Below the pieces are notes generated by a model. It searched no databases, had not been told where the DNA came from, and was given only the letters and a program-made list of their open reading frames with translations. The position numbers and the translations under genes are program-made. 64,000 bases of DNA from a virus (Duplodnaviria; Caudoviricetes). The stretch is from the IMG/VR virus record IMGVR_UViG_3300021197_001596, positions 1,535 to 65,534 of that record; one strand, given 5' to 3'. Positions 19,347-63,692 of the stretch are shown here, piece by piece (the stretch's first letter is position 1; each line of letters opens with the position of its first letter).

Positions 19347-20594
19347 TTATTGTTTCATTTTAATTTTTAAACGACTAAAATCATCTCCACTAACTGCTTT
19401 AACTTGCATTCCCGCTTGTGTTGTAACATTTTGATGTGTACCACGGGGGTTCATATCTATGTTTTTAGATTTAGCCATACTGTTTTTAACAGCATCAGCT
19501 TTTCCTTGTTCATAAAAATGATTTGCAATTGCATCAGCGTTCATAGCTGTAAATAAAGCTTTGTGATAACCCGCCGCATCTTTCATATTATTTTTTTCAT
19601 CAACAAATCTGCTGACTAATGAATTAATATCAGATTGGGATTCTTGCACATTATTTACATCTTTTACTTTAAATCTATATTTGTCTTCTCCAACTTTGTA
19701 TTCAAAACCTTTGAAGTCGTTGGCAAACAAGTCACTTGTTTTTTGTTCAAATATAGACCGCTGCTGTTGAGATGTTTCTTGCGTTTGTTTATAATCATCA
19801 TAAAACTGAACCGCTTCTTTCTGTTGTAGAGTTAACTTTGAGCTTAACTTAAGATCGTCGTAATATTTACTCTTTAAATTAGTTAGAGTTGATTTAGCTT
19901 CTGCGATAGATTCTTTTAATGCTAGTTTTTTTCTTCGAATATCTCTTTCATCATCTGTTTCTTCATCATATGAAAAAGAGTCTTCAATTAAAAAACTTAT
20001 TTCTTCCTCATTCAAGTGAGGTTTAGACTGCCTATAGTGTTCTCTTAAAACATCCATATCAGCCATATCGGAGTAATCTTTATTAAGATTAACATAATCT
20101 TCAAGAGTTCCTCCTGTTTCTTTCATAAAATCAACAAGCTTATTTACATTTTCCGGTAACTCGTTGACTTCTTGATTATTATTTACGTCTTCTGACTCCT
20201 CTTTAAGCTTATTAGGAATATCTTTTATTTTATCCGCTAATGTTGCTTCTTCTCCTACCTCTTTTTCGTCTTGTACGAGCTCGAGCACCCCATTTTCATT
20301 GTCAACGGTGTTGCTTTCTCCGGTAGGTTCTTCATTTGTTTTTTCGGCGTTTTGCTCTTGTACTTCTCCGCTAGTTTCGGATTGGTCGCGTACAGAAACC
20401 TCATCTGGGCTTTGCTCTTGAACGGCATCGTCGTTTTTGTTTAAGTTTCTAAAATCTACTTTAATCATTCCGTCATCATCAACGGATACGTTGCTAGGCC
20501 TTTCTGGCTCTTTAGCAATTGGTTGTTTTTCTTCTGTTTGTTGTTCAACAGCATCTTGTACTGTTTCTTCAACTTGATTTGTTTCTTCTGCCAT
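19347..20594 (-). CDS. Capsid scaffolding protein (415 aa)
   Basis: Very acidic, disordered N-terminus followed by helical coiled coil; lies between portal and major capsid genes. Confidence 0.75.
   Translation of the reverse strand: MAEETNQVEETVQDAVEQQTEEKQPIAKEPERPSNVSVDDDGMIKVDFRNLNKNDDAVQEQSPDEVSVRDQSETSGEVQEQNAEKTNEEPTGESNTVDNENGVLELVQDEKEVGEEATLADKIKDIPNKLKEESEDVNNNQEVNELPENVNKLVDFMKETGGTLEDYVNLNKDYSDMADMDVLREHYRQSKPHLNEEEISFLIEDSFSYDEETDDERDIRRKKLALKESIAEAKSTLTNLKSKYYDDLKLSSKLTLQQKEAVQFYDDYKQTQETSQQQRSIFEQKTSDLFANDFKGFEYKVGEDKYRFKVKDVNNVQESQSDINSLVSRFVDEKNNMKDAAGYHKALFTAMNADAIANHFYEQGKADAVKNSMAKSKNIDMNPRGTHQNVTTQAGMQVKAVSGDDFSRLKIKMKQ
20255..20428 (-). CDS. Small basic protein nested in +1 frame of the scaffold gene (57 aa)
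   Basis: MPFKSKAQMRFLYATNPKLAEKYKSKTPKKQMKNLPEKATPLTMKMGCSSSYKTKKR*; A-rich leader TTAAACAAAAACGACG; matches the MPFKS..Q....A..P..A pattern I recall from small phage proteins. Confidence 0.7.
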   Translation of the reverse strand: MPFKSKAQMRFLYATNPKLAEKYKSKTPKKQMKNLPEKATPLTMKMGCSSSYKTKKR

Positions 20595-20611
20595 GATATA
20601 ATATTATAAAA

Positions 20612-23035
20612 TTAACGGGGTTCAAATGATTCTAAGTTAAAGCCGCTCCCCATGGTGTCATTACCAGCTGACTCAAACTCTTGCTCTCCTTTTTTATCTT
20701 TTCTTTGTTCAATAAGTTTTGATTGTTGTGAAGCTTGTATTCTAGTTCTTTCGTCTTTACGATCTTCTTTATATTGTTCTCTATTAGTGTATACTTCACC
20801 TTCTTTATCTTTCAATGCAATATTAAGATCAAACTCAAATCGCATAAGTTCTTTCTTAAGTTCTTTTTCATTTTGCATTTTCTGCATTTCAAGATCTGCT
20901 TCAATTTGTGCAAGCTCTGCTTTTTGTTGTGTAATAGACTGATTCTTTTTAATTTCCATTTCAGCGGCAACCTGCGTATTTTGGGAATTTGCATTTGCTT
21001 GTGCTTCAATGTTTTGTTGCTGGCTTGCTTGATCTTGCTCTAGCTTTTTGCGTCTTCTAACTTTTAATAATTGATTAGCGAGCTTTATATTTTTTATTTC
21101 TCTAATATCAATAGCATCTTCTAAATAAACTTGATCTTTAGCTAAAGCTTGTTGAATATTATTTTCAAGCATTTGTTTTTCTTCTTCGTCAGGAGATAAC
21201 TCAATAAATATACCGAAGTCATGCAAATGCATATTTTTAATATCGTCTAAAGTAGCCACATTAAATCTACCAATACTTGATATAAACGCATCTCTAGTCG
21301 GAGAAAACTCTAATACATCTGATATTCTTAAGCTTACAGCCTCCGCTGTTTTAGCAGCCAAATATAAACTTGACTGTAGTATATGCCTTGTAGCCGTATT
21401 TGAATTAGCGGCTGCAAGTTTTTGTACGCCAACTAACGCGTTTTTATCTGGTAAAGAACCGTCGCGAGCTTCATTTAAACCGGTTACATCACGTATCATT
21501 TGTAAATAATAATTATAAGTATTAATAAGTGAACCTATTTTATTATTACCTCCATTAGATGTAAGCTCTTGTATTGGCATGCGGCCTGGATTCATATCAC
21601 CTTCTTGTGTCATTGATCTACCAATAACAGAACCTGTCTGGAAAAACATATTCAATGCTTCCTGTGGGTTGTAATTTGTACCGTTACCTAAATCAATTTC
21701 AGCTAAGCCATCGGCATCTAAATAAACTCCATCAGGTATCATTCTTGCCATTACCTGCTGCAGCTTTAAATGTGTAAGCTGTATCATATCAGCAAATCCA
21801 GTAATTCTACTTACTAATGATTCAATACGACCTTTATATATACGAGGGGCTACAACATTATAGTTTAACATAACTTTTGTTGTATCGCTTTTAGGACGAA
21901 CCATATTTTTTGCAATTTCCCATTTAAGTAACTGTTGAGTTCCTAAAACAAAAGCACCATCATATACAACCTCAATTGATCTTGATTCTTTGCTAAATAA
22001 GGATCTATTATCTTTAGGTGGGTTAAATTGATCGCTTTTAGGTATTGCTTTATCAGCACCAGTTGCTGTTTTCTTTATTTTAAATACTTCGTTATTATAT
22101 GTTTTGTAATTAAAATACAATATTTGTATTGTATTAACATCTAATACAGAGTCTTCGTTTATATATCTATTATGTGAGGCTGATGTTTGTACTCCTTGTT
22201 TTGATAAATTTGCAAGGTCTTCATCAGTTAAATGAGGAAATTGTTGCTTTAACTCATTGATTGTTACTGATTTAACTTCTCCAACATAGTATATATCATC
22301 AAAATATGGTGAATGAGTATAAGAATAAACCACATCAGAAGGATCAACATATTTTAATTTTATACCTTCAGAATTAGTAAATTCATTTTTAACACAACCA
22401 ATACCTATAACAGCCAGGTCATAATTAATACGACGCTGAGTTAAGTCATAGTTATTAGAATTAAATATAGAATTTATTGCTTGCTCTTCTGCTATTTCAA
22501 TAGCCTGCTTATACTCTAGTTGCATGTGCAATGCTAGTTCATCTTCGTTTTTGGGCAAGCTGTCTCTATCGTTGCTATACACATTAAAACCAAGCTGTTG
22601 CTGAATTTGATCAGATATTTCTTTTGATTGCATATCTGCTAATACAGATTCAACATAGTCTGTTCTTTGTTTTACAGAGGAAGGATCTTGAGAAAAAGCT
22701 TTAATATCATAAAGCCTATCAGACATTCCATTAACAACTATATCAACAAACTTTGGGATAATTGGTACTGGTTTCCAATCTAAATTAAGATATGATAAAT
22801 CACCATTAATAGATAATTCATCTTTATATTTTTTTACAGATTGTTCTCCTCTTGCATATAAGCGAAGACGGTGATACTCATCTCTATTAGAGTAAAATCG
22901 CGTTGCACCGCTATCTCTTTTGAACCACTCGTGTTCAATAGCACGCGCGACTTTTAAACCATACTCCTCGGTTGCTTTCTCTACGTCAGATGCTATCTGA
23001 CTAGGGAATGAGCTTTTTAATAATGTTTCTGCCAT
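20612..23035 (-). CDS. Portal protein (807 aa)
   Basis: Follows the terminase; PIIPKFVDIVVNG and IRDVTGLNEARDG motifs; long C-terminal coiled-coil barrel. Confidence 0.85.
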   Translation of the reverse strand: MAETLLKSSFPSQIASDVEKATEEYGLKVARAIEHEWFKRDSGATRFYSNRDEYHRLRLYARGEQSVKKYKDELSINGDLSYLNLDWKPVPIIPKFVDIVVNGMSDRLYDIKAFSQDPSSVKQRTDYVESVLADMQSKEISDQIQQQLGFNVYSNDRDSLPKNEDELALHMQLEYKQAIEIAEEQAINSIFNSNNYDLTQRRINYDLAVIGIGCVKNEFTNSEGIKLKYVDPSDVVYSYTHSPYFDDIYYVGEVKSVTINELKQQFPHLTDEDLANLSKQGVQTSASHNRYINEDSVLDVNTIQILYFNYKTYNNEVFKIKKTATGADKAIPKSDQFNPPKDNRSLFSKESRSIEVVYDGAFVLGTQQLLKWEIAKNMVRPKSDTTKVMLNYNVVAPRIYKGRIESLVSRITGFADMIQLTHLKLQQVMARMIPDGVYLDADGLAEIDLGNGTNYNPQEALNMFFQTGSVIGRSMTQEGDMNPGRMPIQELTSNGGNNKIGSLINTYNYYLQMIRDVTGLNEARDGSLPDKNALVGVQKLAAANSNTATRHILQSSLYLAAKTAEAVSLRISDVLEFSPTRDAFISSIGRFNVATLDDIKNMHLHDFGIFIELSPDEEEKQMLENNIQQALAKDQVYLEDAIDIREIKNIKLANQLLKVRRRKKLEQDQASQQQNIEAQANANSQNTQVAAEMEIKKNQSITQQKAELAQIEADLEMQKMQNEKELKKELMRFEFDLNIALKDKEGEVYTNREQYKEDRKDERTRIQASQQSKLIEQRKDKKGEQEFESAGNDTMGSGFNLESFEPR

Positions 23036-23036
23036 G

Positions 23037-25244
23037 CTATTGTATTATTTGCGAATGCAATCCTTTATTATTAAATCTAGAAAATTTTAAATTTACGTTT
23101 TGTTTTTCAACTTTTGGTCTTGGGTGATACAAATGTCTATTACAAGCCATTATTGTTAACCCCGAACTTATAGTTGCATCAAATTTTGTTCTTTTATTTA
23201 TATCAAACTTAGCCCAATCGTTAAGTGTTCTATTAAAATATATATTACCACCCCCGTCTTCATTTATTCCCACGTATTTATTTATGTAAGTTTCAATAGC
23301 AGCGGCGTGGGCTTGTTTAATATCTTCAGATGAATTAGGAATCCCGCCAATTTCTTTTTCTGTTACTGATAGTTTATTCCAAATTTTATCAGGCCTGTTC
23401 ATTGCAAAACCTCTATAACCTCTTCTTTTTAAATGATATAAAAGCCTTGGTTTATTGTTTTCTGCTAGTAACGGCATTCCGTAATAAATAATGGCCATGA
23501 GAACATCTTCAAAAAACATTTCAGCTGTTTGGGGTCGGGCAATATATTCTAAAAAAAACGTATTAGGCGGAGCATCCTCCATACTAAATTTTGTTAATCC
23601 ATGCAAAGATCCCTTAGATCCCTGTCCATCAGTTGTTCCTGATATATCGTAAGAGTCACATCCAAATGCCCCCATGTGCTCATTCCCCGGATATTTAGTA
23701 CCTCCTTTGTTTATTACATTGTTTTCGAGGTTTTTAGGTGGTGTCCATGAGACTAAAAATCTACCCGATCTATTTGGGGTAAACATTACTTTTGTATCCT
23801 TAATACCATTTTCCCAACTAAAACTACCTCTAGTTACAAAACCTTGTCTTTCAAGATCTTCATTATAGTCTATTTGTTCGTATATTTTACTTAAATTAAA
23901 AATACTATTTTTTGCTTCGTCACGGAATGCGTGCTCTTCAGTCCTGGGGAATTGTCTATAATATTCGTTTAAACCATCAGAATCGTGTTTTAATCCCTCT
24001 ACTTCGTTATGCCAAAAATCTATTACCCCTGTATCAATCTCATATCCATTGTTGTCAAAAGTGGCGTTTGTTGGCGTATTAAATACAGGGTGTCCATAAG
24101 TATCAATGTATCCTTCGTAGTTCCATTCCATAGGTATGAACAAAGAATATAATCCTGAGCTAGTTTGGCCATTTTTATTTCGTTTTGTAACATCTGAGTC
24201 ATTATATAACTTTTTAAAGTTTTCACCTCCTTTATCTAAAGAATTTGAAGTAGACCCCATCATACATTTACCTATAATACGACTACCAAGCCTTAATGTT
24301 GTTTTTGTTACACGCCAGTTATTTAATATATTATCAGGTCTTTCCCATTTTCCTGATTCATCATGCACTAGCAACCTTAATTTTTCACCATCATAACTGT
24401 TGTCACCTGTGTTTTTCCAGTCAATAGTTGTATCTAATCCTTCTAATATTTGTTTTTCACTAGTTTCGGTAATCGACTTACGGGTGAGTTTACTTGCGGG
24501 TACCCTGTATGCCAATTCTGTTTTTGGCCGGTCCATTCCGTCTTGTATTGGTTTGAAAAAGAAGGGGTAGTTGACGGATATTGGTACCACCTTGTCTGTA
24601 AACATTTTTTTAGCATCAGCACCAGATTTGGACAATATCCCAAACCGTGCGTCCGTAGTAATTGTTGCTTGAGCAACGGATTCTGCTGAAGACATAAAGG
24701 AAAAACCAGACCTTCTGTTTTTAAGATAGCACATTCCATAAGACCTGACGTCCGCTTTACAAGCCTCCCAGAAGATATAGAAAATTCTATTGGCTTCTCT
24801 GTAGTCTGGCTTCCCAACATCAATCTTGGTGTGTTGCAAGTACATATAATGAGAGCCAGTAATATAAGTAGCGATATTTTTATTATAAAACCAATAACCT
24901 TTATTACGCCTAGTGAATTCCCTATCAATATATGCATACCATTTATTTTTAAAAGAATCAGGATAAGACTCCCAATCAAATATAGTATTTATTTGTTTTA
25001 ATTCTTTTGGATATATATGAGCTTCCCATTTGTCATTAGTATTATCAATGCTTTTAGGTTTTGACGGAAGTGCTATCGCTAAATTCTGTATTTCAATAAT
25101 CTCTCCGATTGTACCATCTTTGCTAATGACTATAACATCAAATTCTTTATTATATCCATATACCCATTTTTTATATCTGTTATTTCTTTTAATAACATTT
25201 TCTTTAATAGGCTTTATTACTTTTATTAGCTTTTGTTCGTACAT
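23037..25244 (-). CDS. terL: Terminase large subunit (735 aa)
   Basis: Walker A-like YLKNRRSGFS, Walker B LLVHDESGKW, coupling motif GSTSN, nuclease GCDSYD and C-terminal KFDATIS. Confidence 0.92.
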   Translation of the reverse strand: MYEQKLIKVIKPIKENVIKRNNRYKKWVYGYNKEFDVIVISKDGTIGEIIEIQNLAIALPSKPKSIDNTNDKWEAHIYPKELKQINTIFDWESYPDSFKNKWYAYIDREFTRRNKGYWFYNKNIATYITGSHYMYLQHTKIDVGKPDYREANRIFYIFWEACKADVRSYGMCYLKNRRSGFSFMSSAESVAQATITTDARFGILSKSGADAKKMFTDKVVPISVNYPFFFKPIQDGMDRPKTELAYRVPASKLTRKSITETSEKQILEGLDTTIDWKNTGDNSYDGEKLRLLVHDESGKWERPDNILNNWRVTKTTLRLGSRIIGKCMMGSTSNSLDKGGENFKKLYNDSDVTKRNKNGQTSSGLYSLFIPMEWNYEGYIDTYGHPVFNTPTNATFDNNGYEIDTGVIDFWHNEVEGLKHDSDGLNEYYRQFPRTEEHAFRDEAKNSIFNLSKIYEQIDYNEDLERQGFVTRGSFSWENGIKDTKVMFTPNRSGRFLVSWTPPKNLENNVINKGGTKYPGNEHMGAFGCDSYDISGTTDGQGSKGSLHGLTKFSMEDAPPNTFFLEYIARPQTAEMFFEDVLMAIIYYGMPLLAENNKPRLLYHLKRRGYRGFAMNRPDKIWNKLSVTEKEIGGIPNSSEDIKQAHAAAIETYINKYVGINEDGGGNIYFNRTLNDWAKFDINKRTKFDATISSGLTIMACNRHLYHPRPKVEKQNVNLKFSRFNNKGLHSQIIQ
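24443..24937 (-). CDS. Candidate nested membrane/lipoprotein in +1 frame of terL (164 aa from ATG 24937)
   Basis: 178 stop-free codons in the +1 frame; hydrophobic IIKISLLILLALIICTC; terL codons here are G/C-ending far more often than in the flanks. Confidence 0.5.
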   Translation of the reverse strand: MHILIGNSLGVIKVIGFIIKISLLILLALIICTCNTPRLMLGSQTTEKPIEFSISSGRLVKRTSGLMECAILKTEGLVFPLCLQQNPLLKQQLLRTHGLGYCPNLVLMLKKCLQTRWYQYPSTTPSFSNQYKTEWTGQKQNWHTGYPQVNSPVSRLPKLVKNKY

Positions 25245-25519
25245 TATTTAGATCTTTTTTCAGCAAACCCTCCAAAACTTTTTTTACTTTCTGCTGGCTT
25301 ATCATCCATAATATTTTTTTCCGCTTCTATACGTGAAAGTATTTCAAAAGCATCGAATATCGCTAGTTTTTTAGTTGCTGCTGCATTTTTTAATCTATCT
25401 GCTGCTAATTCGTCTTCCGCACCATCTACAATTATTTCTTCTTCAGCTACTCTAATAAGTTCGTGTACCGCTTTATATCCAGCTTGGATTATACTCGATT
25501 TCAGTTCCTTCTCTGTCAT
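25244..25519 (-). CDS. Small helical protein upstream of terL (terminase small subunit candidate)
   Basis: Coupled to the terL start; helical ADRLKNAAATKKLAIFDAFEIL. Assignment is positional only. Confidence 0.5.
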   Translation of the reverse strand: MTEKELKSSIIQAGYKAVHELIRVAEEEIIVDGAEDELAADRLKNAAATKKLAIFDAFEILSRIEAEKNIMDDKPAESKKSFGGFAEKRSK

Positions 25520-26069
25520 ATTTAATTGCTATTGAATTTATAGGTACTCTATATAATTTTTCGTTATCAATAACGAACTCATATTCGCTATTCGGCGTAA
25601 AGCCTACTAAATTATCTTCTGAAAGATTAAAGCTTCTTAAATGGCTCCCTAGATACTTTAAAATGCCTATTAATGGCTTTTCTTTTTGCTCGCTAAGCTT
25701 TTTATTTTCAGCTATTGGCTTTACAAAACAATAATCTTCCGGAGTGTACCATTTATTATTTCTTTTATATAAAAATATTTGGTCTATATAACAAAAAAAT
25801 AAATCGTCTTTAAAATAATTACTGCTATTGGTGGCTTTTCCTCGCATATTATAATACCTTCTAAATGTATTATGATGCACAATAACTTCATCGCCTTTTT
25901 GCAATGTAGAATTGTTTATAGGAGTTTCTACAACAACACCTACTCTATTTACGAATTTATGATCCTCTATAGATGTATTTAAAATTAAATTAGAATCACC
26001 TACTTTTTTATTATTAGTATATCTACCATTAATAGGTTTTATAATATAAGCGTGTAAATGCTTCATCAA
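25473..26069 (-). CDS. Tandem GroES-like co-chaperonin protein (198 aa)
   Basis: Two repeats of the Cpn10 pattern: YIIKP...LIL...GVVV...KGDEVIV and YCFVKP...IGILKY...EDNLVGF...EFVIDNEKLYRV. Confidence 0.6.
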   Translation of the reverse strand: MMKHLHAYIIKPINGRYTNNKKVGDSNLILNTSIEDHKFVNRVGVVVETPINNSTLQKGDEVIVHHNTFRRYYNMRGKATNSSNYFKDDLFFCYIDQIFLYKRNNKWYTPEDYCFVKPIAENKKLSEQKEKPLIGILKYLGSHLRSFNLSEDNLVGFTPNSEYEFVIDNEKLYRVPINSIAIKYDREGTEIEYNPSWI

Positions 26070-38733: not shown

Positions 38734-38743
38734 TTAAATTAAT

Positions 38744-39061
38744 TTAACAATTCCATCTTCTTCGTGCAGCTCTACCTCTTTCCCCAGTCCAACCTTTAGA
38801 TCTAGCGCAAAATGATTTTCTTCTCTTTGCGGCTTTGCTACCAGGTTTTAGTTTACTAGGTGGAGTGGTTACAGCTGTTTTTAATTTACTTCCAGGGTTA
38901 TCTGCTTTATATTTATTTACACCCTTTTGAGACATTCCACCTCCAGCTTTTCCGCCCGTACCCGTGGGGTTGGCTTTATTATAATAGCCTAAAGATTTTT
39001 TCTTTGATGGAGCGGGAGGTTTCTTCATAAGAGGAGATACCCTTTTAGTTATTGGTTCCAT
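38744..39061 (-). CDS. Small basic phage protein (105 aa)
   Basis: GGM..KG...Y...NPGSKLKTAVT...AKRRKSFCAR...RRWNC motif, recalled as common in aquatic phages. Confidence 0.65.
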   Translation of the reverse strand: MEPITKRVSPLMKKPPAPSKKKSLGYYNKANPTGTGGKAGGGMSQKGVNKYKADNPGSKLKTAVTTPPSKLKPGSKAAKRRKSFCARSKGWTGERGRAARRRWNC

Positions 39062-55198: not shown

Positions 55199-55513
55199 AT
55201 GGCAGGAATTATTAAAACAAGTATTAATTTAAGTAACATACCTAAAGATAAAATTATCGAAGGTAAAAAAGGTAAATATCTACCTGTTACAATAACAATC
55301 AACGACGAAGTTGATCAATTTGGAAATCAAGGTCCGGTAATTGTATCTCAAACTAAAGATGAAAGAGATGCTAAAATGGAAAAAACATATTTAGGAAATG
55401 TGCAGGTTGCATGGACTAATGGTGAATTTCCTTCACCACCACCTAGAGATGGTCAGCCATTACCAACTACATCAGCTCCGGCAAAAGAAGTAGAGGACGA
55501 CTTACCATTTTAA
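55199..55513 (+). CDS. Putative single-stranded DNA-binding protein (104 aa)
   Basis: GKKGKYL...DQFGN...YLGN core and acidic DDLPF tail. Confidence 0.7.
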   Translation: MAGIIKTSINLSNIPKDKIIEGKKGKYLPVTITINDEVDQFGNQGPVIVSQTKDERDAKMEKTYLGNVQVAWTNGEFPSPPPRDGQPLPTTSAPAKEVEDDLPF

Positions 55514-55514
55514 T

Positions 55515-57230: not shown

Positions 57231-57496
57231 AAAGTAAAAACAAAAACACGTGGATGCCTTTTTATCATCCAACACCAGAAGAATATGAGGCAAGCCAATT
57301 TTGTATTAAAAATAATTTTAGGATTTCCCCCCTAGGCATTAACGGTGAACCCAATAAATGGAAAATAGGAATTAATGTAGGGCCATATAAAAAAGGTGAA
57401 AAGCCTAATATAGCCCCACACACATATGATAAAAACACGATTTGGGTAGAATATTATAAATTTTGTAAATATTATTATGATAAATATAGAAGATGA
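57215..57496 (+). CDS. Hypothetical protein (93 aa)
   Basis: ORF track; overlaps both neighbours. Confidence 0.6.
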   Translation: MGSGLKSKNKNTWMPFYHPTPEEYEASQFCIKNNFRISPLGINGEPNKWKIGINVGPYKKGEKPNIAPHTYDKNTIWVEYYKFCKYYYDKYRR

Positions 57497-58301
57497 ATAC
57501 AGAGGATTATTATCAGGAGTACTCCATGGCGGAGCTAAAAAACCAGATAGAACAGGCACAGGGACGTGCGCTGTCTTCGGAAGAATGCTTAAGCATGATA
57601 TGGCATTGGGATTTCCGATATTAACTAGTAAAAAAATATATTTTGATAAAGCCGTCACAGAATTATTATGGATACTATCCGGTAAAACTGATCTTGCTTA
57701 TTTGCATTCCAACAATGTTAGATATTGGGATGATGATTATAATAGATCAGGTAGAACCGATGGCACACTGGGTCCCGTATATGGCAAGCAGTGGCGTAAT
57801 TTCGGTGGGGTTGATCAGTTATATGAGCTTCTTAGAGAAATTAAACAAAATCCAACCTCACGTAGAATTCTTATTAATGCGTGGAATCCTGCTGAGCTTA
57901 TGGATATGGTACTTCCTCCTTGCCATTACGGTTTTCAAGTCTATATCAATAATGGCGAGATGAGTTTAATGTGGCAACAAAGATCAGCCGATTTGTTTTT
58001 AGGTTTGCCATACGATATAGTTATGTACGGTTTATTATTAGAAATGCTTGCTGCTGGCAATGGATATAAACCGAAGCAGTTAATATGTAGTCTGGGTGAT
58101 TGTCATTTGTATAATAATCACGTCAATGCTGCTAAAATTCAGCTAGAAAGAACTACCTTTGAATTACCGCAACTAGAAATGTCCTTTGGGTTAACCCTTA
58201 GAGAAGGTGCTGGTAATTTTATTCATATTCCCACAAAGAATATGATTGAGTTAAATAATTATAAATATCACAAACCAATTAAAGCAAAATTATCGACATG
58301 A
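57477..58301 (+). CDS. thyA: Thymidylate synthase ThyA (274 aa)
   Basis: DRTGTGT, ELLW, LGPVYG.QWR, LPPCH, QRSADLFLGLP, GDCHLY.NH. Confidence 0.96.
   Translation: MINIEDEYRGLLSGVLHGGAKKPDRTGTGTCAVFGRMLKHDMALGFPILTSKKIYFDKAVTELLWILSGKTDLAYLHSNNVRYWDDDYNRSGRTDGTLGPVYGKQWRNFGGVDQLYELLREIKQNPTSRRILINAWNPAELMDMVLPPCHYGFQVYINNGEMSLMWQQRSADLFLGLPYDIVMYGLLLEMLAAGNGYKPKQLICSLGDCHLYNNHVNAAKIQLERTTFELPQLEMSFGLTLREGAGNFIHIPTKNMIELNNYKYHKPIKAKLST
57643..57963 (+). CDS. Candidate nested hydrophobic ORF in +1 frame of thyA (up to 106 aa)
   Basis: 106 stop-free codons; thyA prefers CTT here; start uncertain. Confidence 0.4.
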   Translation: MIKPSQNYYGYYPVKLILLICIPTMLDIGMMIIIDQVEPMAHWVPYMASSGVISVGLISYMSFLEKLNKIQPHVEFLLMRGILLSLWIWYFLLAITVFKSISIMAR

Positions 58302-58708
58302 GAAAATTAAATTTACTTTTACTATTTTTACCACTTTTTATTAATGCACAGTATAGAGGAGCTGTTAAGTTTCAAAATACCGTAAGATCTTATTACAATA
58401 TACAAGAGTTATCTACTAATAGACAACTTAAAAAAGAAGCTCAATCTTGGGCTAATTATATTGCTATTGAAGATGAGTTAATTTTATCTTCTGATATATA
58501 TGGAGAATCATTATATAGATTACCTAAAAATGATATAATGAATTCAAGAAATTATTATTTAGACGCGGCAGTAGCTTGGTTTGAAGCAAATAACACTCCT
58601 GAATACTATCAACAATTATGTTATAACTGCACCGAAGTTGGCTTTGGAATGGCTGAAAGCGATGAGTATATATATGTTGTAGCTAAATATGATAAAATTT
58701 ATGATTAA
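58298..58708 (+). CDS. Secreted CAP/SCP (PR-1-like) domain protein (136 aa)
   Basis: Signal peptide, then N.VR......L.....L...AQ.WA...GE.LY...A...W...Q.....TEVGFG.A.....YVVA.Y. Confidence 0.7.
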   Translation: MRKLNLLLLFLPLFINAQYRGAVKFQNTVRSYYNIQELSTNRQLKKEAQSWANYIAIEDELILSSDIYGESLYRLPKNDIMNSRNYYLDAAVAWFEANNTPEYYQQLCYNCTEVGFGMAESDEYIYVVAKYDKIYD

Positions 58709-59471
58709 AAAAAATTATTATATTTATCATATTCCTGATCAAAAAATTGGAATGACGTGTAATTTAAATAAACGCGTTGAATCTGAACAGGGATATAAAA
58801 AAGATGAATACGAAGTTTTATTTTCATCCAGGGATGTAGATAAAGCAGCCTTAATGGAAAGAAAATTGCAAAAGTTTTATGGATATAAAATTGATAGACA
58901 ATTATATACTAATTTAATAAAAATTAAATCAATGAAAGTTAATCCGACAGAGCAAACATCAACATTTGATTGTGAGCGACAAGACTTATTAAAAGTTTTA
59001 AATCAGAATGAAGGGTTTAAATGGAAAACAAGTCTTGGAGATTTTGAAATAAATGAAGAAACAAAAAAATGGATAATAGCAAATGCGAAACCATCTATGT
59101 ATAATAATGACCGCTGTTTTATCTATAATAAAGCCTATTATGAAGCTTTTTTATCAAAACCTACATATAACAAGGTTGAGATATTTGATCTCATTAGAAG
59201 CTGGGCAGATGAGCGTGGCATATATGACAAAGGTGATCCTAAAACACAATTAATTAAATTATATGAAGAAACAGGAGAACTTGCCAAAGCATTACTTGAA
59301 GATGATAAAGACGGTATTATTGACGCTATTGGTGATAGTGTTGTTGTTCTTACTAATCTCTCAAAATTGGTCGGATACGACGTTGAAAGCTGTATTCAGT
59401 CTGCTTATGATGAAATATCTAATAGAACTGGCAGAATGATAGATGGAACATTTGTAAAAGATACATTATGA
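58689..59471 (+). CDS. GIY-YIG-like domain fused to MazG-like nucleotide pyrophosphohydrolase (260 aa)
   Basis: N-terminal YYIYHI...KIGMT.NL.KR; C-terminal WADERG...KL.EETGELA...DAIGD..VVL. Confidence 0.75.
   Translation: MIKFMIKKNYYIYHIPDQKIGMTCNLNKRVESEQGYKKDEYEVLFSSRDVDKAALMERKLQKFYGYKIDRQLYTNLIKIKSMKVNPTEQTSTFDCERQDLLKVLNQNEGFKWKTSLGDFEINEETKKWIIANAKPSMYNNDRCFIYNKAYYEAFLSKPTYNKVEIFDLIRSWADERGIYDKGDPKTQLIKLYEETGELAKALLEDDKDGIIDAIGDSVVVLTNLSKLVGYDVESCIQSAYDEISNRTGRMIDGTFVKDTL
59263..59439 (+). CDS. Candidate nested membrane protein in +1 frame of the MazG domain (58 aa)
   Basis: MKKQENLPKHYLKMIKTVLLTLLVIVLLFLLISQNWSDTTLKAVFSLLMMKYLIELAE*; leader AATTAATTAAATTAT resembles those of bona fide genes here. 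Confidence 0.5.
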   Translation: MKKQENLPKHYLKMIKTVLLTLLVIVLLFLLISQNWSDTTLKAVFSLLMMKYLIELAE

Positions 59472-59695
59472 GAGATAAAATAATTGAACAAGTAATTAAT
59501 AAAATTAAATCACGATCTGATGTTGGCTTTAAAAAATATGGGGTTACTCTTGAAGATGATGATCAGTCTTTAGATACATGGCTTAAGCATATCCAAGAAG
59601 AATTAATGGATGCCGTTAACTATATTGAAAAAGCCCGCTCTGTATTACGTGAAGAAATTGAAGAGCTTTACATAAGAGATGCGAAGGAAGTATAA
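59468..59695 (+). CDS. Small all-alpha NTP-pyrophosphatase-like protein (75 aa)
   Basis: RS..G.KKYG.TL...WL.H.QEELMDA..Y. Confidence 0.6.
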   Translation: MRDKIIEQVINKIKSRSDVGFKKYGVTLEDDDQSLDTWLKHIQEELMDAVNYIEKARSVLREEIEELYIRDAKEV

Positions 59696-60128
59696 AAAGA
59701 AAAGGGGGCCGGTACAATCAAAAAAAATAACTTATGATGGAATTAATTTTGCATCAGGGTTAGAAAGATATATGTATATGGCCCTTAAAAAAGCAAAAAT
59801 AAAAGCAAAATACGAAGGAGAAACTTTTGTTCTTATAAATGGTTTTCATTTAGCAAATGAGTCTTATGAAAGACAAGCTAATGGAAAAGGAGATTTTATC
59901 AATAGAGGTGGTAAAAGAATATTGCCTATAAAATATACACCAGACTTTATAGGAGATGATTTTATTATTGAAACAAAAGGCAGAGCTAATGAATCTTTTC
60001 CAATTAGATGGAAATTATTTAAACGTTTAGTTTCTGAACAATTTCCTGATTATGTTTTATTTAAACCACAAAATCAAAAAGAATGCGACAGGGTAATAGA
60101 TATAATAAAGGAGACTCGAAGGAAGTAG
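59679..60128 (+). CDS. T7 endonuclease I-like resolvase (149 aa)
   Basis: FASGLE...YE...YTPDF...IIETKG. Confidence 0.8.
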   Translation: MRRKYKKKRGPVQSKKITYDGINFASGLERYMYMALKKAKIKAKYEGETFVLINGFHLANESYERQANGKGDFINRGGKRILPIKYTPDFIGDDFIIETKGRANESFPIRWKLFKRLVSEQFPDYVLFKPQNQKECDRVIDIIKETRRK

Positions 60129-60248
60129 CGAGAAAACATTACGCTAATCGTCAAATTGAAAAGTGGATTAAATGGACGATAGAAAGCAGGGGATATTTAA
60201 AATATAATGAATTAGTACAATTACATGAAGAGCACAATATAAAATGTT

Positions 60249-60383
60249 ATGGCTAAAATAGTATTATCAAATTATTTAAAAAAATCAAAAGTAAGAAGAC
60301 CAGGCGTCCATGCAAAAACTAAAACGTCTAAAATAAAATCTTCTAAAAATTATGTTAAACGTTATAAAGGACAAGGGAAATGA
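60249..60383 (+). CDS. Small basic protein (44 aa)
   Basis: MAKIVLSNYLKKSKVRRPGVHAKTKTSKIKSSKNYVKRYKGQGK*; preceded by a small ORF at 60083..60256. Confidence 0.6.
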   Translation: MAKIVLSNYLKKSKVRRPGVHAKTKTSKIKSSKNYVKRYKGQGK

Positions 60384-60523
60384 ATATACCTAATTGGAAT
60401 TTAAGTATAGGGTTATACCCAGGAATATTGATAGGATTAAGATCTTATCCGGAAAAAGAATATGTGCAACATGTGCTTTATCTACCTTTTGTAGATTTGT
60501 GCTTAGAAATAGAAAGAAAATAA
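60380..60523 (+). CDS. Small hypothetical protein (47 aa)
   Basis: MNIPNWNLSIGLYPGILIGLRSY...HVLYLPFVDLCLEIERK*; ATGA and TAATG coupling on both sides. Confidence 0.6.
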   Translation: MNIPNWNLSIGLYPGILIGLRSYPEKEYVQHVLYLPFVDLCLEIERK

Positions 60524-61491
60524 TGGGATTATTTGACAAAAGAATACCGTATAAACCATTTGAATACCCAGAATATTATAATGATGGATGGCTTAAACAA
60601 GCTCAAGCATTTTGGTTGCACACTGAGATACCTATGTCTGGTGATGTTAAAGATTGGAATGAAAAGCTTACAGCCTCAGAAAAAAACTTAGTTGGAAATA
60701 TACTTTTAGGTTTTGCACAAACAGAATGTGCGGTTTCTGACTATTGGACCCAAAAAGTTGTATCTTGGTTTCCAAAACACGAAATACAGCAAATGGCGAT
60801 GATGTTTGGTTCACAAGAAACCATACATGCAGTAGCATATAGTTATTTAAACGAAACTTTAGGCCTTGAAAACTTTGAAGCATTTTTACATGAGCCAGCA
60901 ACGGCTGATAGATTTGATAATCTCGTTACTTATAATGGTAGCGATCCCGTGGGTATTGGTAGATCATTGGCAATATTTAGCGCGTTCGCAGAAGGAGTTA
61001 GTCTCTATTCTGCTTTCGCTGTTCTTTATAGCTTCCAATTACGTAATTTACTCAAGGGTGTTGGGCAACAAATGAAGTGGTCAGTAAGAGATGAATCACT
61101 TCACAGTAGAATGGGTTGCCAACTATTCAGACATATGTGTGCTGAAAATAAAAACTTATTAGAAGAATGTAGAGAAGATGTTATTAAAGCAGCAGAAACC
61201 ATGCTTGAAGCAGAAGAAAGATATATTGACAAAATGTTCGAACAAGGAGACATTGAAAATCTTAAATCTAACGACCTCAAACAGTTTATTAGAAAGCGAC
61301 TTAATGAAAAATTATCCGAGCTTGGATACTTCGACCTCGGGCAATACTTTGCATATGACGAAAAGCGAGCAAGCAATTTGGACTGGTTTTATCATCTTAC
61401 CGGGGGGCATACTCATACTGATTTTTTTGCTGTTCGTCCGACCGATTATTCTAAAGCAAATGAAGGAGAAGATTTTGAAGATATATGGTAA
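60523..61491 (+). CDS. nrdB: Class I ribonucleotide reductase beta subunit
   Basis: YKPFEYP, FW...E, ETIH..AY, EG..L.S.F, RDESLH; start at ATG 60523 (TAATG overlap). Confidence 0.93.
   Translation: MGLFDKRIPYKPFEYPEYYNDGWLKQAQAFWLHTEIPMSGDVKDWNEKLTASEKNLVGNILLGFAQTECAVSDYWTQKVVSWFPKHEIQQMAMMFGSQETIHAVAYSYLNETLGLENFEAFLHEPATADRFDNLVTYNGSDPVGIGRSLAIFSAFAEGVSLYSAFAVLYSFQLRNLLKGVGQQMKWSVRDESLHSRMGCQLFRHMCAENKNLLEECREDVIKAAETMLEAEERYIDKMFEQGDIENLKSNDLKQFIRKRLNEKLSELGYFDLGQYFAYDEKRASNLDWFYHLTGGHTHTDFFAVRPTDYSKANEGEDFEDIW
60866..61075 (+). CDS. Candidate nested 2-TM protein in +1 frame of nrdB
   Basis: MSQQRLIDLIISLLIMVAIPWVLVDHWQYLARSQKELVSILLSLFFIASNYVIYSRVLGNK. Confidence 0.45.
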   Translation: MKTLKHFYMSQQRLIDLIISLLIMVAIPWVLVDHWQYLARSQKELVSILLSLFFIASNYVIYSRVLGNK

Positions 61492-61546
61492 AATTAAAAG
61501 CACTAGTAAAAGAAAGAAAGCTAAGCCCGTTAGAAAGATTATCTAA
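61178..61546 (+). CDS. Candidate nested single-TM protein in +1 frame of nrdB 3' end (up to 122 aa)
   Basis: 122 stop-free codons; AIWTGFIILPGGILILIFLLFVRP TM followed by a basic tail. Confidence 0.5.
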   Translation: MLLKQQKPCLKQKKDILTKCSNKETLKILNLTTSNSLLESDLMKNYPSLDTSTSGNTLHMTKSEQAIWTGFIILPGGILILIFLLFVRPIILKQMKEKILKIYGKIKSTSKRKKAKPVRKII

Positions 61547-61739
61547 TAGGCTTGGTTATATGGGAGCGGGATTTATAATGATTTCGCCTTATTTATTACC
61601 CGACTCAATTGGGGCTATAACATATGTAGCCGGAGGAATATTATCTTTACCACAAGTTTTTGTAGCAAAGCAGTGGAATTTAGTAATAGTAAACATAAAT
61701 GTAACCTTAGGGTATTTAATTTATTTATATAATGCATAA
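61485..61739 (+). CDS. Small three-TM membrane protein (84 aa)
   Basis: Three hydrophobic segments with LPQ and KQWNLV; lies between nrdB and nrdA. Confidence 0.65.
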   Translation: MVKLKALVKERKLSPLERLSNRLGYMGAGFIMISPYLLPDSIGAITYVAGGILSLPQVFVAKQWNLVIVNINVTLGYLIYLYNA

Positions 61740-61960
61740 TGAAAGAAAACAAACTAATAGAAATGTGGAAAAGAGTAGAGATACTCGGAGCGAACCAACA
61801 ACAAATAATACAGGAGATGCAAAATATGAAAGACCTCTTGATTGGGACGCTAGAGACCTTGAAGCGGATACCTGGCTACGAAAAAGCCCTAGGTCAACTC
61901 AAGGAAGATACACAAAAAGATTCTGGGAATAAAGAAAAAAAATTAGAGAATGTGGAATAA
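61739..61960 (+). CDS. Coiled-coil hypothetical protein (73 aa)
   Basis: TAATG coupling upstream; overlaps the nrdA start. Confidence 0.6.
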   Translation: MKENKLIEMWKRVEILGANQQQIIQEMQNMKDLLIGTLETLKRIPGYEKALGQLKEDTQKDSGNKEKKLENVE

Positions 61961-63692
61961 CGACTGGAAAAAAGGTGAAGACTACCCTGTATGGGGTGAC
62001 ACGGAAGTTTACAAAAAAACAATATCCGGAGGTTATTTATACAATGGCGAAACACCTAAGGAAGCATACATGCGTGTTGCAAAAACAGTTGCAAGACGTT
62101 TATATAAACCAGAAATGGCTGATAATTTTTTTCAGTACATATGGGATGGATGGTTATGTTTAGCGTCACCAGTATTATCTAATACAGGCACAGACAGGGG
62201 TTTACCTATAAGTTGTTTTGGAATTGATGTTGCTGATAGTATACAGGATATAGGACAAAAAAATTTAGAAATGATGCTCTTAGCCAAGCATGGAGGCGGT
62301 GTTGGCGTAGGAGTTAATATGATTAGACCCGCTGGAGCTAAAATTACAGGTAATGGAACATCTGATGGAGTGGTGCCGTTTTGCAAGATATACGATTCAA
62401 CTATACTCGCCACTAATCAAGGATCTGTCCGGCGAGGAGCTGCGTCAGTTAATATCAATATTGATCACTCCGACTTTGAAGAGTGGTTGGAGATACGAGA
62501 GCCGAAAGGAGACATTAATAGACAATCACTTAATCTCCACCAGTGCGCTGTGGTCGGTGACAAGTTTATGCGAAGACTTGAATCAGGAGATAAAGAGGCT
62601 AGAACAAAGTGGTCAAAACTTCTCCAAAAGCGTAAAGCAACTGGAGAGCCTTATATACTCTTTAAGGGAAATACAAACAAAGCTAACCCAAAAGCATATA
62701 AGCAAAACGGGCTCAAAGTTCATATGACAAACATATGTAGCGAAATAACATTACATACAGATGAATCACATTCTTTTGTTTGCTGTTTATCATCTGTTAA
62801 TTTAGATAAATACGACGAATGGAAGAATACGAATTTAATTTACGACGCAACTTGGTTCCTGGACGGTGTGCTAGAAGAATTTATCCAGAAGGCGAAGAAT
62901 ATGAAGGGATTCGAGAACTCTGTACGCAGTGCGGAGAAAGGGCGGGCACTTGGACTTGGTGTCCTTGGGTGGCACAGCCTACTCCAAAAAAACGGAATCG
63001 CTTTCGAAAGCTTGTTAGCGCAATTCAAAACGCGGGAAATATTTTCAAAAATAAAAATAGAAACTGAAAGAGCATCTAGGAATTTAGCCGAAGTCTATGG
63101 CGAACCTCTTTGGTGCGTTGGGACTGGCATGCGTAATACTCATTTACGAGCAACTGCTCCAACTGTTTCTAATAGCAAATTAAGCGGGAATGTTTCTGCG
63201 GGGATTGAACCCTGGGCTGCTAATGTATTTACTGAGCAGTCAGCTAAAGGTACATTTATACGTAAAAACAAGGAACTTAAAAAAGTATTAAGAAAAATTG
63301 GGATCGATAATAAAGAAACTTGGGATAAAATTTTGGAAGATGGTGGATCCGTTCAAGGAGTTAAACAACTTGATGGATGGTTTTACGATCACACAGGAAG
63401 ACTTAACCAAGAAGAAGGAGAATTAGTAAAAAATGTATTTAAAACATTTAAGGAGATAAATCAGTTGGAATTAGTTAATCAAGCCGGCATTAGACAAGAC
63501 TATATAGATCAATCTGTTAGTTTGAATTTGGCTTTTCCATCTGTAGCTACCCCCAAATGGATTAATAAAGTACACTTAGAAGCATGGAAGCGAGGTATTA
63601 AAACCTTATATTATATGCGTACTGAGTCTGTATTGAGAGGAGATATTGCCGCAGCAGCGATGGATCCTGATTGTTTAAGCTGCGATGGATAA
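61950..63692 (+). CDS. nrdA: Class I ribonucleotide reductase alpha subunit, compact, no ATP-cone (580 aa)
   Basis: SPVLSN, ISCF, GGGVG, QGSVRRGA, TNICSEI, LGLGVLG, APT.S.S, IDQS.S.N, KTLYY, C-terminal CLSC. Confidence 0.95.
   Translation: MWNNDWKKGEDYPVWGDTEVYKKTISGGYLYNGETPKEAYMRVAKTVARRLYKPEMADNFFQYIWDGWLCLASPVLSNTGTDRGLPISCFGIDVADSIQDIGQKNLEMMLLAKHGGGVGVGVNMIRPAGAKITGNGTSDGVVPFCKIYDSTILATNQGSVRRGAASVNINIDHSDFEEWLEIREPKGDINRQSLNLHQCAVVGDKFMRRLESGDKEARTKWSKLLQKRKATGEPYILFKGNTNKANPKAYKQNGLKVHMTNICSEITLHTDESHSFVCCLSSVNLDKYDEWKNTNLIYDATWFLDGVLEEFIQKAKNMKGFENSVRSAEKGRALGLGVLGWHSLLQKNGIAFESLLAQFKTREIFSKIKIETERASRNLAEVYGEPLWCVGTGMRNTHLRATAPTVSNSKLSGNVSAGIEPWAANVFTEQSAKGTFIRKNKELKKVLRKIGIDNKETWDKILEDGGSVQGVKQLDGWFYDHTGRLNQEEGELVKNVFKTFKEINQLELVNQAGIRQDYIDQSVSLNLAFPSVATPKWINKVHLEAWKRGIKTLYYMRTESVLRGDIAAAAMDPDCLSCDG
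62353..62727 (+). CDS. Candidate nested coiled-coil protein in +1 frame of nrdA (124 aa)
   Basis: 124 stop-free codons; heptads LCEDLNQEIKRLEQ...VKQLESLIYSLREIQTKL; nrdA avoids TTA in this span. Confidence 0.55.
   Translation: MEHLMEWCRFARYTIQLYSPLIKDLSGEELRQLISILITPTLKSGWRYESRKETLIDNHLISTSALWSVTSLCEDLNQEIKRLEQSGQNFSKSVKQLESLIYSLREIQTKLTQKHISKTGSKFI
62819..63067 (+). CDS. Candidate nested Cys-containing protein in +2 frame of nrdA (82 aa)
   Basis: Sharp rise in G/C-ending nrdA codons over this span; C...CTQC...C. Confidence 0.5.
   Translation: MEEYEFNLRRNLVPGRCARRIYPEGEEYEGIRELCTQCGERAGTWTWCPWVAQPTPKKRNRFRKLVSAIQNAGNIFKNKNRN

Follow-up and report, generated by a model that had tools for sequence, protein, structure and literature searches.

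Stop-codon avoidance among relatives suggests overprinted +1-frame genes nested in core genes of an uncultured marine phage

The genome of an uncultured marine phage (Duplodnaviria; Caudoviricetes), available as IMG/VR virus record IMGVR_UViG_3300021197_001596, raises the question of whether long open reading frames (ORFs) lying out of frame, on the same strand, inside conserved core genes are accidents of composition or a second set of genes. The window, the whole stretch of 64,000 nucleotides that was analyzed, corresponds to bases 1535-65534 of this 65.5-kb record, which is rated complete and has a G+C content of approximately 33%. The left two thirds of the window carry virion, packaging, and lysis genes on the minus strand, and its right end carries, on the plus strand, genes for a primase-helicase, thymidylate synthase (thyA), a MazG-domain protein, and the two ribonucleotide reductase (RNR) subunits (nrdB and nrdA). 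A first-pass annotation made from the letters alone had proposed that accessory genes are systematically overprinted on such essential genes, and all of the nested ORFs that it listed are present in the sequence, in position, frame, and length. Our comparison with related phages indicates that several of the nested +1 ORFs are probably real overprinted protein-coding genes, kept by selection in a large uncultured marine phage family. The central proposal, a second same-strand coding layer in conserved core genes that ordinary annotation misses, is thus upheld, the evidence being avoidance of stops across the family, conservation of ATGs, or constraint on the encoded protein. Candidates that appear well supported by these sequence comparisons are the ORFs of 57 aa in the scaffold gene, 178 aa in terL, 79 and 56 aa in the primase-helicase gene, 106 aa in thyA, and 124 aa in nrdA, together with the last 80 codons of the 122-aa ORF in nrdB, while those of 67 aa in terL, 69 aa in nrdB, 58 aa in the MazG gene, and 82 aa in the +2 frame of nrdA appear to be supported weakly or in a subclade only. 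The word "systematic" went too far, as seven further nested ORFs look like chance and their scarcity in the fibre genes is what a null model predicts.

The comparative set consisted of 260 related IMG/VR loci, with up to 80 relatives per gene, in which the host genes are intact. Protein-guided codon alignments were made for window genes, or 400-codon chunks of them, that had at least 10 relatives at 85% coverage. Of 62 chunks, 30, spanning 28 genes, could be aligned, and the other 32 had fewer than 10 relatives at this coverage; most of the large fibre and adhesin genes, having too few relatives, fell outside the set. The expected number of alternative-frame stops was calculated for each sequence and each codon boundary from the sequence's own codon usage, given its amino acids. 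In both alternative frames of the 30 chunks, the lowest ratio of observed to expected stops over 40 codons was 0.53-1.0 nearly everywhere, and ratios below 0.25 were found only for nrdB (0.00), nrdA (0.08), terL (0.11), the primase-helicase gene (0.16), thyA (0.22), and the scaffold gene (0.22), all in the +1 frame. The depletion is local, with +1 ratios of 0.0-0.4 at codons ~120-285 of terL, 0.17-0.40 at codons 60-150 of thyA, and 0.00-0.38 at codons 135-240 of nrdA, and of about 1 in the remainder of these three genes. A search for stop-codon avoidance across homologues had been suggested as a check on the nested layer, and +1 avoidance is what was seen, in segments of six host genes. Furthermore, a scan for an excess of sequences with zero stops flagged only terL, nrdB, nrdA, thyA, and the primase-helicase and MazG genes. 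The +2 frame gave no comparable signal in the 30-chunk scan apart from side-effects, and the three antisense registers showed only side-effects of the same codon avoidance, plus a small unexplained dip in groL (codons 55-95, ~41900-42040, antisense register 0), where 10 stops were observed against 34 expected (ratio, 0.30) in 21 sequences.

The switch in codon choice that had been noticed inside the nested spans is real and context-specific. TTA, ATA, and GTA (hereafter xTA) are shunned before codons starting with A or G, which is the only context in which they create a +1 stop, and are near normal before codons starting with C or T; this difference argues for stop avoidance rather than a shift in codon usage. 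Likewise, xTG before A is absent inside the nested segments. The stop counts per sequence are bimodal, in that a sequence carries either none or the background number. Identity at four-fold sites among the open sequences has a median of 0.42-0.48, compared with 0.30-0.36 at saturation, and on the host-protein trees the state changes between open and broken at least four times for nrdA and at least three times each for thyA and the primase-helicase gene, the broken sequences not being simply the most distant ones. Near-saturated four-fold sites and repeated changes of state suggest that the shared open frames are not a matter of simple inheritance. The presence or absence of one nested ORF is independent of that of the others, and the nested ORFs are gained or lost lineage by lineage.

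The segment with sharp edges in nrdA, which encodes the RNR large subunit (61950-63692, plus strand), coincides with a candidate +1 gene of 124 aa, nrdA-alt (62353-62727, plus strand), whose product would be soluble and is predicted to be helical. Over host codons 135-240, where the ratio of observed to expected stops falls to 0.00-0.38 between flanking bins of 0.9-1.2, 71 of 81 sequences have no stop (6.5 expected), one has a single stop, and nine have 4-8. Before A or G, the xTA share inside compared with outside the segment is 0.059 vs 0.527 for Leu, 0.068 vs 0.360 for Ile, and 0.027 vs 0.270 for Val, and before C or T the corresponding values are 0.54 vs 0.65, 0.57 vs 0.62, and 0.35 vs 0.45. 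An ATG stands at host codon 134 in 16 of the 16 sequences shown. Codon bias measured column by column among the open sequences is 0.407 bits inside and 0.194 bits outside (p 1e-6), a contrast not seen in the broken sequences, fixed non-preferred codons are enriched inside (6 of 94 columns vs 2 of 305), and a protein search returned 16 database proteins of 106-124 aa that represent the same ORF.

Further downstream, nrdA contains a Cys-rich +2 ORF of 82 aa (62819-63067, plus strand), possibly restricted to a clade. None of 80 relatives is open over the whole of the ORF found in the window (observed/expected stops, 0.97); its 60-codon core is stop-free in 16 of 81 sequences, and a 50-codon window is stop-free in 27 of 81, where 2.5 would be expected. 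At nearly the same place, codons 287-345 (62810-62985), 37 of 81 relatives (e.g., loci L118-L125) carry a +1 ORF instead, with an ATG at codon 287 in all 37, and the window has three stops in this +1 frame. In this segment 37 sequences have the +1 ORF only, 19 (the window and 18 others) have the +2 ORF only, 25 have neither, and none has both.

The gene for the terminase large subunit, terL (23037-25244, minus strand; phrog_6681, E 8.8e-160), contains the longest candidate, terL_A (24443-24937, minus strand), a +1 nested gene of 164 aa from a conserved ATG; the open frame extends to a TTG at 24979, which gives the 178 aa of the original listing (24443-24979). Over host codons 110-250, 58 of 81 sequences lack a +1 stop, compared with 4.9 expected, and the context test is positive. 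The start would be the ATG at host codon 102 in 40% and that at codon 106 in 50% of the open sequences. The predicted product has an N-terminal hydrophobic transmembrane or signal-like helix, an invariant Cys-Thr-Cys-(Ser/Asn)-Gly motif, and a long disordered basic tail rich in Ser, Thr, Pro, and Gln. Several host codons are held in forms that matter to the nested frame alone. For instance, where the nested frame has Cys, the host Leu is encoded by the rare TTG or CTG in all 58 open sequences, compared with 7 of 22 broken ones. Of the 58, 55 use TAC for a host Tyr, and 55-57 have a T-ending codon at each of three host Thr/Ser columns (ACT in 55-56), which produces Leu in the alternative frame. 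When peak hydrophobicity was ranked against synonymous shuffles confined to the region, 49 of 58 open sequences and 4 of 22 broken ones fell in the top 5%. Used as the query of a profile search, terL_A retrieved 151 cluster representatives, 80 of them at E <=1e-30, and none of 41 family members matched any PHROG. In the terL gene of Elemovirus, which is 46% identical, the +1 frame contains no long ORF, the longest having 54 codons (p 0.33).

By its predicted helix and conserved Cys, the terL_A product resembles an envelope-targeted protein, yet it fails the tests for a spanin. An outer-membrane spanin (o-spanin) like Rz1 was considered and rejected: the ORF lies inside terL, 13 kb from the holin and endolysin genes, and the residues before the Cys, Ile/Thr/Leu or Cys-Thr, do not fit the usual lipobox consensus. 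A second +1 ORF in the same gene, terL_B (24023-24226, minus strand; 67 aa, with a GTG start in the window), is a weaker candidate. At terL codons 368-398, 67 of 81 sequences have no +1 stop (1.1 expected), and before A or G the share of ATA is 4 of 91 inside compared with 0.64 outside and that of GTA 3 of 35 compared with 0.41.

A family assignment is available for the nested ORF of the putative scaffold gene (19347-20594, minus strand), which encodes a protein of 415 aa with an acidic linker. The names given to the host genes were confirmed by Pfam/PHROGs for terL, groL, the primase-helicase, thyA, MazG, nrdB, nrdA, and portal, and "scaffold" is left without a family match. The +1 nested gene, scaffold-alt (20255-20428, minus strand), would encode a small and very basic protein of 57 aa with a net charge of +14. 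At host codons 58-95, 38 of 44 sequences have no +1 stop (1.2 expected), and all 38 relatives with an open core have the ATG. The product begins with an invariant Met-Pro, followed by Phe at position 3 in at least 90% of cases, and over this segment, an acidic linker rich in indels in the host protein, the nested frame is the better conserved of the two (mean pairwise identity, 0.42 vs 0.35). The phage family phrog_1375, of unknown function, matches 18 of 35 scaffold-alt family members (best E 9.4e-6; window protein, E 5.5e-4), with modest scores of ~21 bits in a collection, PHROGs, that has no curated cut-off. In a six-frame search of this genome phrog_1375 was found only at scaffold-alt (E 3.2e-5), and it was likewise unique to this site in three complete family genomes and found in none of 14 control genomes. 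A profile search recovered 131 small "hypothetical" proteins in public data, without genomic context, and a tblastn search against named phages gave no match. The nested ORFs had been taken for accessory overprints, and this part of the proposal needs qualification, since scaffold-alt belongs to the existing phrog_1375 and so cannot be viewed simply as an accessory gene that arose de novo.

The primase-helicase gene (Toprim and DnaB_C domains; 55515-57230, plus strand) contains two +1 candidates. The longer one, alt-2 (56317-56556, plus strand; 79 aa), would encode a protein with a basic N-terminus and a C-terminal transmembrane segment. At host codons 270-340, 32 of 44 sequences have no stop (4.6 expected) and the other 12 have 2-7. 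Each of the 32 open sequences has an ATG at host codon 267, which in most of them comes 2 codons after a stop, and the context test again shows stop avoidance. At three columns of the transmembrane segment all 32 have ACT/ATT, and 22 of the 32 rank in the top 5% of the null for hydrophobicity, compared with 1 of 12 broken ones. The other candidate, alt-1 (55954-56124, plus strand; 56 aa), which was missing from the first list, would encode a small hydrophobic protein. Stop counts at codons 145-198 are bimodal, with 16 of 44 sequences having none and 25 having 3-6, and the excess-zero scan gave 16 against 1.9 expected. All 16 open sequences have an ATG at host codon 146, and in the context test over all 44 sequences the xTA share was 0.29 before A/G and 0.67 before C/T inside the segment, compared with 0.39 and 0.59 outside.

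The two genes that follow on the plus strand each contain one candidate. In thyA (57477-58301), the putative +1 gene thyA-alt (57643-57963, plus strand; 106 aa, with a TTG start in the window) would encode a protein with 2-3 hydrophobic segments. At host codons 58-150, 27 of 37 sequences have no stop (5.7 expected) and the remaining 10 carry 4-10, counts of 1-3 being absent. The avoidance of xTA depends on context in this segment too, and the site-specific codon bias among the open sequences is 0.396 bits inside, compared with 0.189 bits outside (p 0.006), a difference that broken sequences lack. In the MazG-domain gene (58689-59471), the +1 ORF MazG-alt (59263-59439, plus strand; 58 aa, one predicted transmembrane segment) is kept only in a subclade that includes the window. 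Stop counts at codons 192-248 are again bimodal (23 of 71 sequences with none, 45 with 3-11), 23 stop-free sequences contrast with 0.2 expected in the excess-zero scan, and 18 of the 23 open sequences have an ATG at host codon 191.

In nrdB, which encodes the RNR small subunit (60394-61491, plus strand), the putative +1 gene nrdB_B (61304-61546, plus strand) would encode 80 aa from a conserved ATG, with one transmembrane segment and a Lys/Arg-rich C-terminus; it covers the last 62 nrdB codons and extends 55 nt beyond the nrdB stop. Over host codons 300-364, 40 of 44 sequences have no stop (3.4 expected), and the ATG at host codon 303 is found in 78%. At this 3' end xTA before A/G occurs 0 times in 274, and Ser TCA, which would create a stop only in an antisense frame, is unchanged, which places the signal on the sense strand. 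The frame is open in the window from 61178, which gave the 122 aa of the original listing (61178-61546); at codons 260-300 relatives have stops at the expected rate, and thus only the last part of the 122-aa frame is conserved. The hydrophobic maximum is in the top 5% of the null in 17 of 40 sequences. A second ORF, nrdB_A (60866-61075, plus strand; 69 aa, with a TTG start in the window and two hydrophobic segments), is a moderate candidate. At nrdB codons 168-212, 32 of 44 sequences have no stop (2.1 expected), and before A or G, ATA is found in 0 of 61 and GTA in 3 of 90 cases inside, compared with 0.33 and 0.36 outside; Ser TCA is also depleted in this span, so that an antisense effect is possible. 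Between nrdB and nrdA (61485-61960, plus strand) there are genes for an 84-aa hydrophobic protein (63 of 66 matches at >=85% coverage) and a 73-aa helical protein (63 matches). If the first ATG of the 84-aa gene is used, its first 62 nt overlap the end of nrdB_B.

How many of the nested ORFs would have stood out in the single genome was judged by shuffling, a check proposed with the first-pass annotation. The longest ORF in each alternative sense frame of 30 genes of at least 130 aa (60 gene-by-frame tests) was compared with 1000 synonymous-codon shuffles and 1000 codon permutations each, and the listed ORFs were retested with 3000 synonymous shuffles and with a stricter shuffle that keeps the first base of the next codon. 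Five of the 60 tests were outliers, and the other listed ORFs fell within the null (p_syn 0.027-0.41). The p_syn values, followed by the values with the next base kept, were 0.0003 and 0.0000 (3000 shuffles) for terL 178, 0.0013 and 0.037 for thyA 106, 0.0047 and 0.089 for the nrdB 122 run, 0.0000 (0 of 3000) and 0.0013 for nrdA 124, and 0.0057 and 0.0013 for the +2 ORF nrdA 82. Ordinary values were obtained for scaffold 57 (0.35), portal 65 (0.09), terL 67 (0.28), groL 64 (0.027), primase-helicase 68 (0.30) and 79 (0.08), MazG 58 (0.10), nrdB 69 (0.12), and nrdA 62 (0.29); several ORFs inside this null are still conserved in relatives.

Seven nested ORFs look like chance products of composition. 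Six of these, in the +1 frame for groL 64 (40818-41012), primase-helicase 68 (55552-55758, plus strand), and nrdA 62 (61975-62163, plus strand), and including portal 65, portal 55, and MazG 56, show observed/expected stops of 0.60-1.07 in relatives and single-genome p values of 0.03-0.41. The seventh, the +2 ORF of 66 aa at 61732-61932 (plus strand), had 8 tblastn matches, compared with 63 for the 73-aa gene that it overlaps. The lack of same-strand nested ORFs of 60 aa or more in the large genes at 7590-15371, 26548-33528, and 33515-38317 was correctly noted (the longest is 57 aa), but it carries no signal of its own: shuffling predicts it (maximum 36-57 aa, null means 47-63, p 0.54-0.92), and the +1 stop density in the large fibre and adhesin genes is 7-10 per 100 codons. 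There are also long antisense ORFs on the plus strand, one of 172 aa with an ATG start inside the tail-fibre gene (42800-43318) and one of 156 aa with a TTG start inside a 1741-aa gene (3508-3978).

The earlier impression that many of the products look like small membrane proteins holds for most of them, and nrdA-alt, predicted to be soluble, and the basic scaffold-alt do not fit it. It had been cautioned that T-ending host codons make +1 products hydrophobic automatically. In region-limited shuffles this caution applied to thyA-alt and nrdB_A, whose hydrophobicity is largely automatic (null 2.0-2.1 vs observed 2.3-2.4), and did not account for terL_A and primase-helicase alt-2, which exceed the null. 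A holin or a known small membrane family was sought for primase-helicase alt-2, thyA-alt, nrdB_A, and nrdB_B, and no Pfam/PHROG match at E <=0.001 was found; the phage already has a holin-family gene (38320-38733, minus strand; phrog_3427). The database matches of terL_A and nrdA-alt indicate that some gene callers do call these ORFs; they come without genomic context, and free-standing homologues are not shown. Contigs that cover parts of the window occur in a marine metatranscriptome and in a further run whose library type is unrecorded; they give presence only, neither strand nor level. Some of the metatranscriptome contigs are identical to the window within 55500-63700 (e.g., 55666-56066 and 60449-60624), and therefore the phage or a near-identical strain is present in that RNA sample.

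Several observations weigh against the view that the nested ORFs are genes. Pfam/PHROG scans of nine of the eleven products, those other than primase-helicase alt-1 and MazG-alt, matched only scaffold-alt, and a language-model search of the ESM Atlas with terL_A and nrdA-alt gave no usable match (scores of 1510 and 1801, compared with 2300 for known families). The AlphaFold2 models have a low mean pLDDT, 54 for nrdA-alt and 45 for terL_A, the latter being confident for helix 4-34 only. Starts are in part poorly defined: nrdB_A has no well-conserved ATG, terL_B has no single conserved start (an ATG at codon 357 in 79%), and the ATG at host codon 57 that begins thyA-alt in 78% of the open sequences is absent from the window, where the start is uncertain. 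Pairwise synonymous variation is hardly reduced, the profile being 0.9-1.2 in terL, thyA, and the primase-helicase gene, with a modest decrease seen in nrdA (0.875 inside vs 1.03 outside). The pairwise profile is insensitive here, as forbidding the dominant TTA codon raises diversity, and it was replaced by the column-wise codon bias, which is not significant for terL_A (p 0.34) and is ambiguous for the primase-helicase gene, where broken sequences show it too. Evidence of purifying selection on the products is mixed: it is clear for nrdA-alt and thyA-alt, for the N-terminus and Cys motif of terL_A, for the transmembrane segment of primase-helicase alt-2, and for scaffold-alt, and it is hardly seen in the pairwise profile. 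Comparisons of two groups are partly circular, because the labels open and broken were set by the stop count; the stop-count histograms and the all-sequence context tests are free of this circularity. The expected counts treat neighbouring codons as independent, and the statistics ignore the kinship of the sequences. Finally, translation of the nested frames is something that we infer from sequence, the RNA contigs giving presence only.

Taken with these reservations, the data favour a mechanism in which ribosomes would start at conserved internal +1-frame ATGs on the host-gene mRNA and the products would be independent small proteins unrelated to the host protein, most of them with at least one transmembrane segment, that of nrdA being soluble and helical and that of the scaffold gene a small basic protein of an existing phage family. 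It is very unlikely that all of the nested ORFs are instead chance open frames that follow from the host amino acids and codon bias and are shared by descent. Chance does describe the seven ORFs set aside above, and it would accommodate the automatic hydrophobicity of thyA-alt and nrdB_A and the failure of the language-model and fold tools to recognise the products given to them. However, it does not explain why xTA is shunned only where a stop would form, why, for one region and one set of host amino acids, the stop counts fall into two classes, with synonymous sites near saturation, why ATGs are conserved and rare codons fix alternative-frame residues, or why no comparable signal is found in the +2 or antisense frames or in 22 other genes. 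A constraint that is not coding, such as an RNA structure, a DNA motif, or the avoidance of restriction or nuclease sites, is hardly conceivable: nothing specific speaks for it beyond the fact that conserved enzymes often carry such elements, whereas the avoidance is frame-specific, the same trinucleotides are undepleted in the +2 register of the nrdA segment, all three stop codons including xTG|A are shunned, and synonymous sites otherwise vary freely.

Two other explanations accept that the frames are read. The +1 frames could be entered by programmed +1 (or -2) frameshifting, giving fusions of the N-terminal part of the host protein with an alternative-frame C-terminus, and frame-specific stop avoidance would then look alike. 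The poorly conserved starts of thyA-alt, terL_B, and nrdB_A would fit such fusions, and programmed +1 frameshifting is reported from Bacteroidia (prfB; PMC10798248). We nevertheless regard frameshifting as quite unlikely, since a conserved ATG marks the 5' edge of open frames, in many cases 2-10 codons downstream of an in-frame stop (32 of 32 for primase-helicase, 38 of 38 for scaffold, and 16 of 16 shown for nrdA), which favours independent initiation; furthermore, the signal-like helix of terL_A and the conserved Met-Pro-Phe start of scaffold-alt look like the N-termini of free proteins. Alternatively, the frames could be kept open for the act of translation, through an effect on host-gene translation or mRNA stability, with a peptide that has no function. 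Sequence constraint is indeed weak over most of the length, the tails are predicted to be disordered, and the C-terminal ends vary, but selection on the hydrophobic segments, the Cys-Thr-Cys motif, and the transmembrane Leu columns, the membership of scaffold-alt in a protein family, and the codon constraint along the length of nrdA-alt make this explanation unlikely as well.

If small proteins are made by internal initiation, the nature of the host may matter. The best NrdA match among named phages is a Flavobacterium myophage (60% identity), and terL resembles that of Flavobacterium Elemovirus phages, with 65-71% nucleotide identity across part of its length and 46% identity at the protein level. 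These nearest named terL and NrdA matches suggest that the host is a member of the Bacteroidota; no close cultured phage was found, the nearest named ones standing at these identities for TerL (46%) and NrdA (60%), and the relatives in IMG/VR number in the hundreds, with at least 600 matches in each of three scans. It has been reported that Bacteroidetes lack Shine-Dalgarno-led initiation and that initiation is tuned by mRNA structure and nearby bases (PMC6847099). Such a lack may ease internal starts in the probable hosts of this phage. A wider proposal is offered tentatively, at somewhat less than an even chance: core genes would be a nursery in which ten or more overprinted ORFs, for the most part encoding small membrane proteins, have arisen and are repeatedly gained and lost, with turnover that may be favoured by internal ATGs in open, A-rich mRNA that the likely Bacteroidota hosts use without a Shine-Dalgarno sequence, and with products that may act at particular infection stages. 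The roles put forward with the first-pass annotation (exclusion, lysis control, and anti-defence) are not supported by the present data, and exclusion, lysis timing, or envelope remodelling are guesses.

The remainder of the window gives the setting of the host genes. On the minus strand, a capsid-type structural protein (17853-19325) and the portal (20612-23035), both named by Pfam/PHROGs, lie on either side of the scaffold gene, and a Cpn60/GroEL-type chaperonin (groL, 40651-42201) and a tail fibre (42544-44751) are also encoded there. Two GroES-like co-chaperonin genes (25473-26069 and 40394-40681, minus strand) accompany this chaperonin, one of them directly upstream of terL, as in Elemovirus. 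The lysis cassette (38320-39534, minus strand) has a 105-aa gene of unknown function between the holin-family gene and the endolysin (39049-39534, minus strand; phrog_894), and no spanin was recognised in it. Among the very large proteins of the left part, the domains identified are Laminin_G_3/DUF7483 repeats, Peptidase_S74, and the C-terminal domain of the crAss muzzle. The last of these (Crassvirus muzzle protein C-terminal domain, PF25729) was matched by the 2593-aa protein (7590-15371, minus strand; E 1.2e-9), which points to a tail component of crAss-like type in this marine phage.

These results bear on how phage genomes are annotated. Because gene callers forbid long same-strand overlaps, phage annotations and most protein catalogues lack such proteins. 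Here, comparative evidence of selection was obtained for seven nested genes in one 65-kb double-stranded DNA (dsDNA) phage, within genes (terL, RNR, and thyA) that serve as phylogenetic and ecological markers. If they are translated, overprinting would not be confined to tiny genomes, "synonymous" sites in marker genes would not be neutral, and a class of small phage membrane proteins would become directly testable, with the presence/absence polymorphism among close relatives providing natural knock-outs. The combination of context-specific stop avoidance and bimodal stop counts can be used for any phage family with enough metagenomic relatives.

Nested genes of this kind have precedents, and two of them come nearest to the present ORFs. 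In lambda, Rz1, which encodes a small envelope-targeted product, is nested in Rz, and in T7 its counterpart, gene 18.7, is nested in 18.5 (offset from the record coordinates, 37032 - 36917 = 115, remainder 1). Both are, like the present ORFs, small genes wholly nested on the same strand at a +1 offset, and the likeness extends to an envelope-targeted product, as terL_A likewise has a signal-like helix followed by a conserved Cys and a disordered tail. In contrast, the hosts here are terL, RNR, thyA, primase-helicase, MazG, and scaffold genes rather than a lysis partner, the lysis cassette lies elsewhere, and no sequence relation between Rz1 or 18.7 and the present ORFs was found. A striking parallel in placement is found in T7, where genes 4.1 and 4.2 lie within gene 4 (primase-helicase) and genes 19.2 and 19.3 within gene 19 (terL), the same two classes of host, with offsets of 70, 1423, 646, and 1183 nt, each with a remainder of 1 in the record coordinates; gene 4.2 extends beyond the end of its host gene, as nrdB_B does. 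These four are hypothetical proteins in the T7 record, their relative positions in the host proteins differ from those found here, and T7 is a 40-kb Escherichia phage that is not a relative and lacks phrog_1375.

Among the small viruses, genes B, K, and E of phiX174 are overprinted, and many RNA viruses have such genes as well. Small overprinting viruses have genomes of a few kb under strong size pressure, whereas the present phage has a 65.5-kb dsDNA genome with ample intergenic freedom, and its seven to eleven overprinted ORFs vary in presence among close relatives. It has been described in two reviews that overprinted products arise from a new frame in an older gene and tend to be small, membrane-active or disordered, and taxonomically restricted (PMC8227390, PMC6195259). 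A literature search for nested genes in phage terL, RNR, and thyA returned general work on overlapping genes, the accessible portions of which contain nothing on this group. Overprinted nested genes are of a known kind; the unusual features of the present set are how many there are, that they sit in marker genes of a 65-kb dsDNA phage, and that they turn over among relatives.

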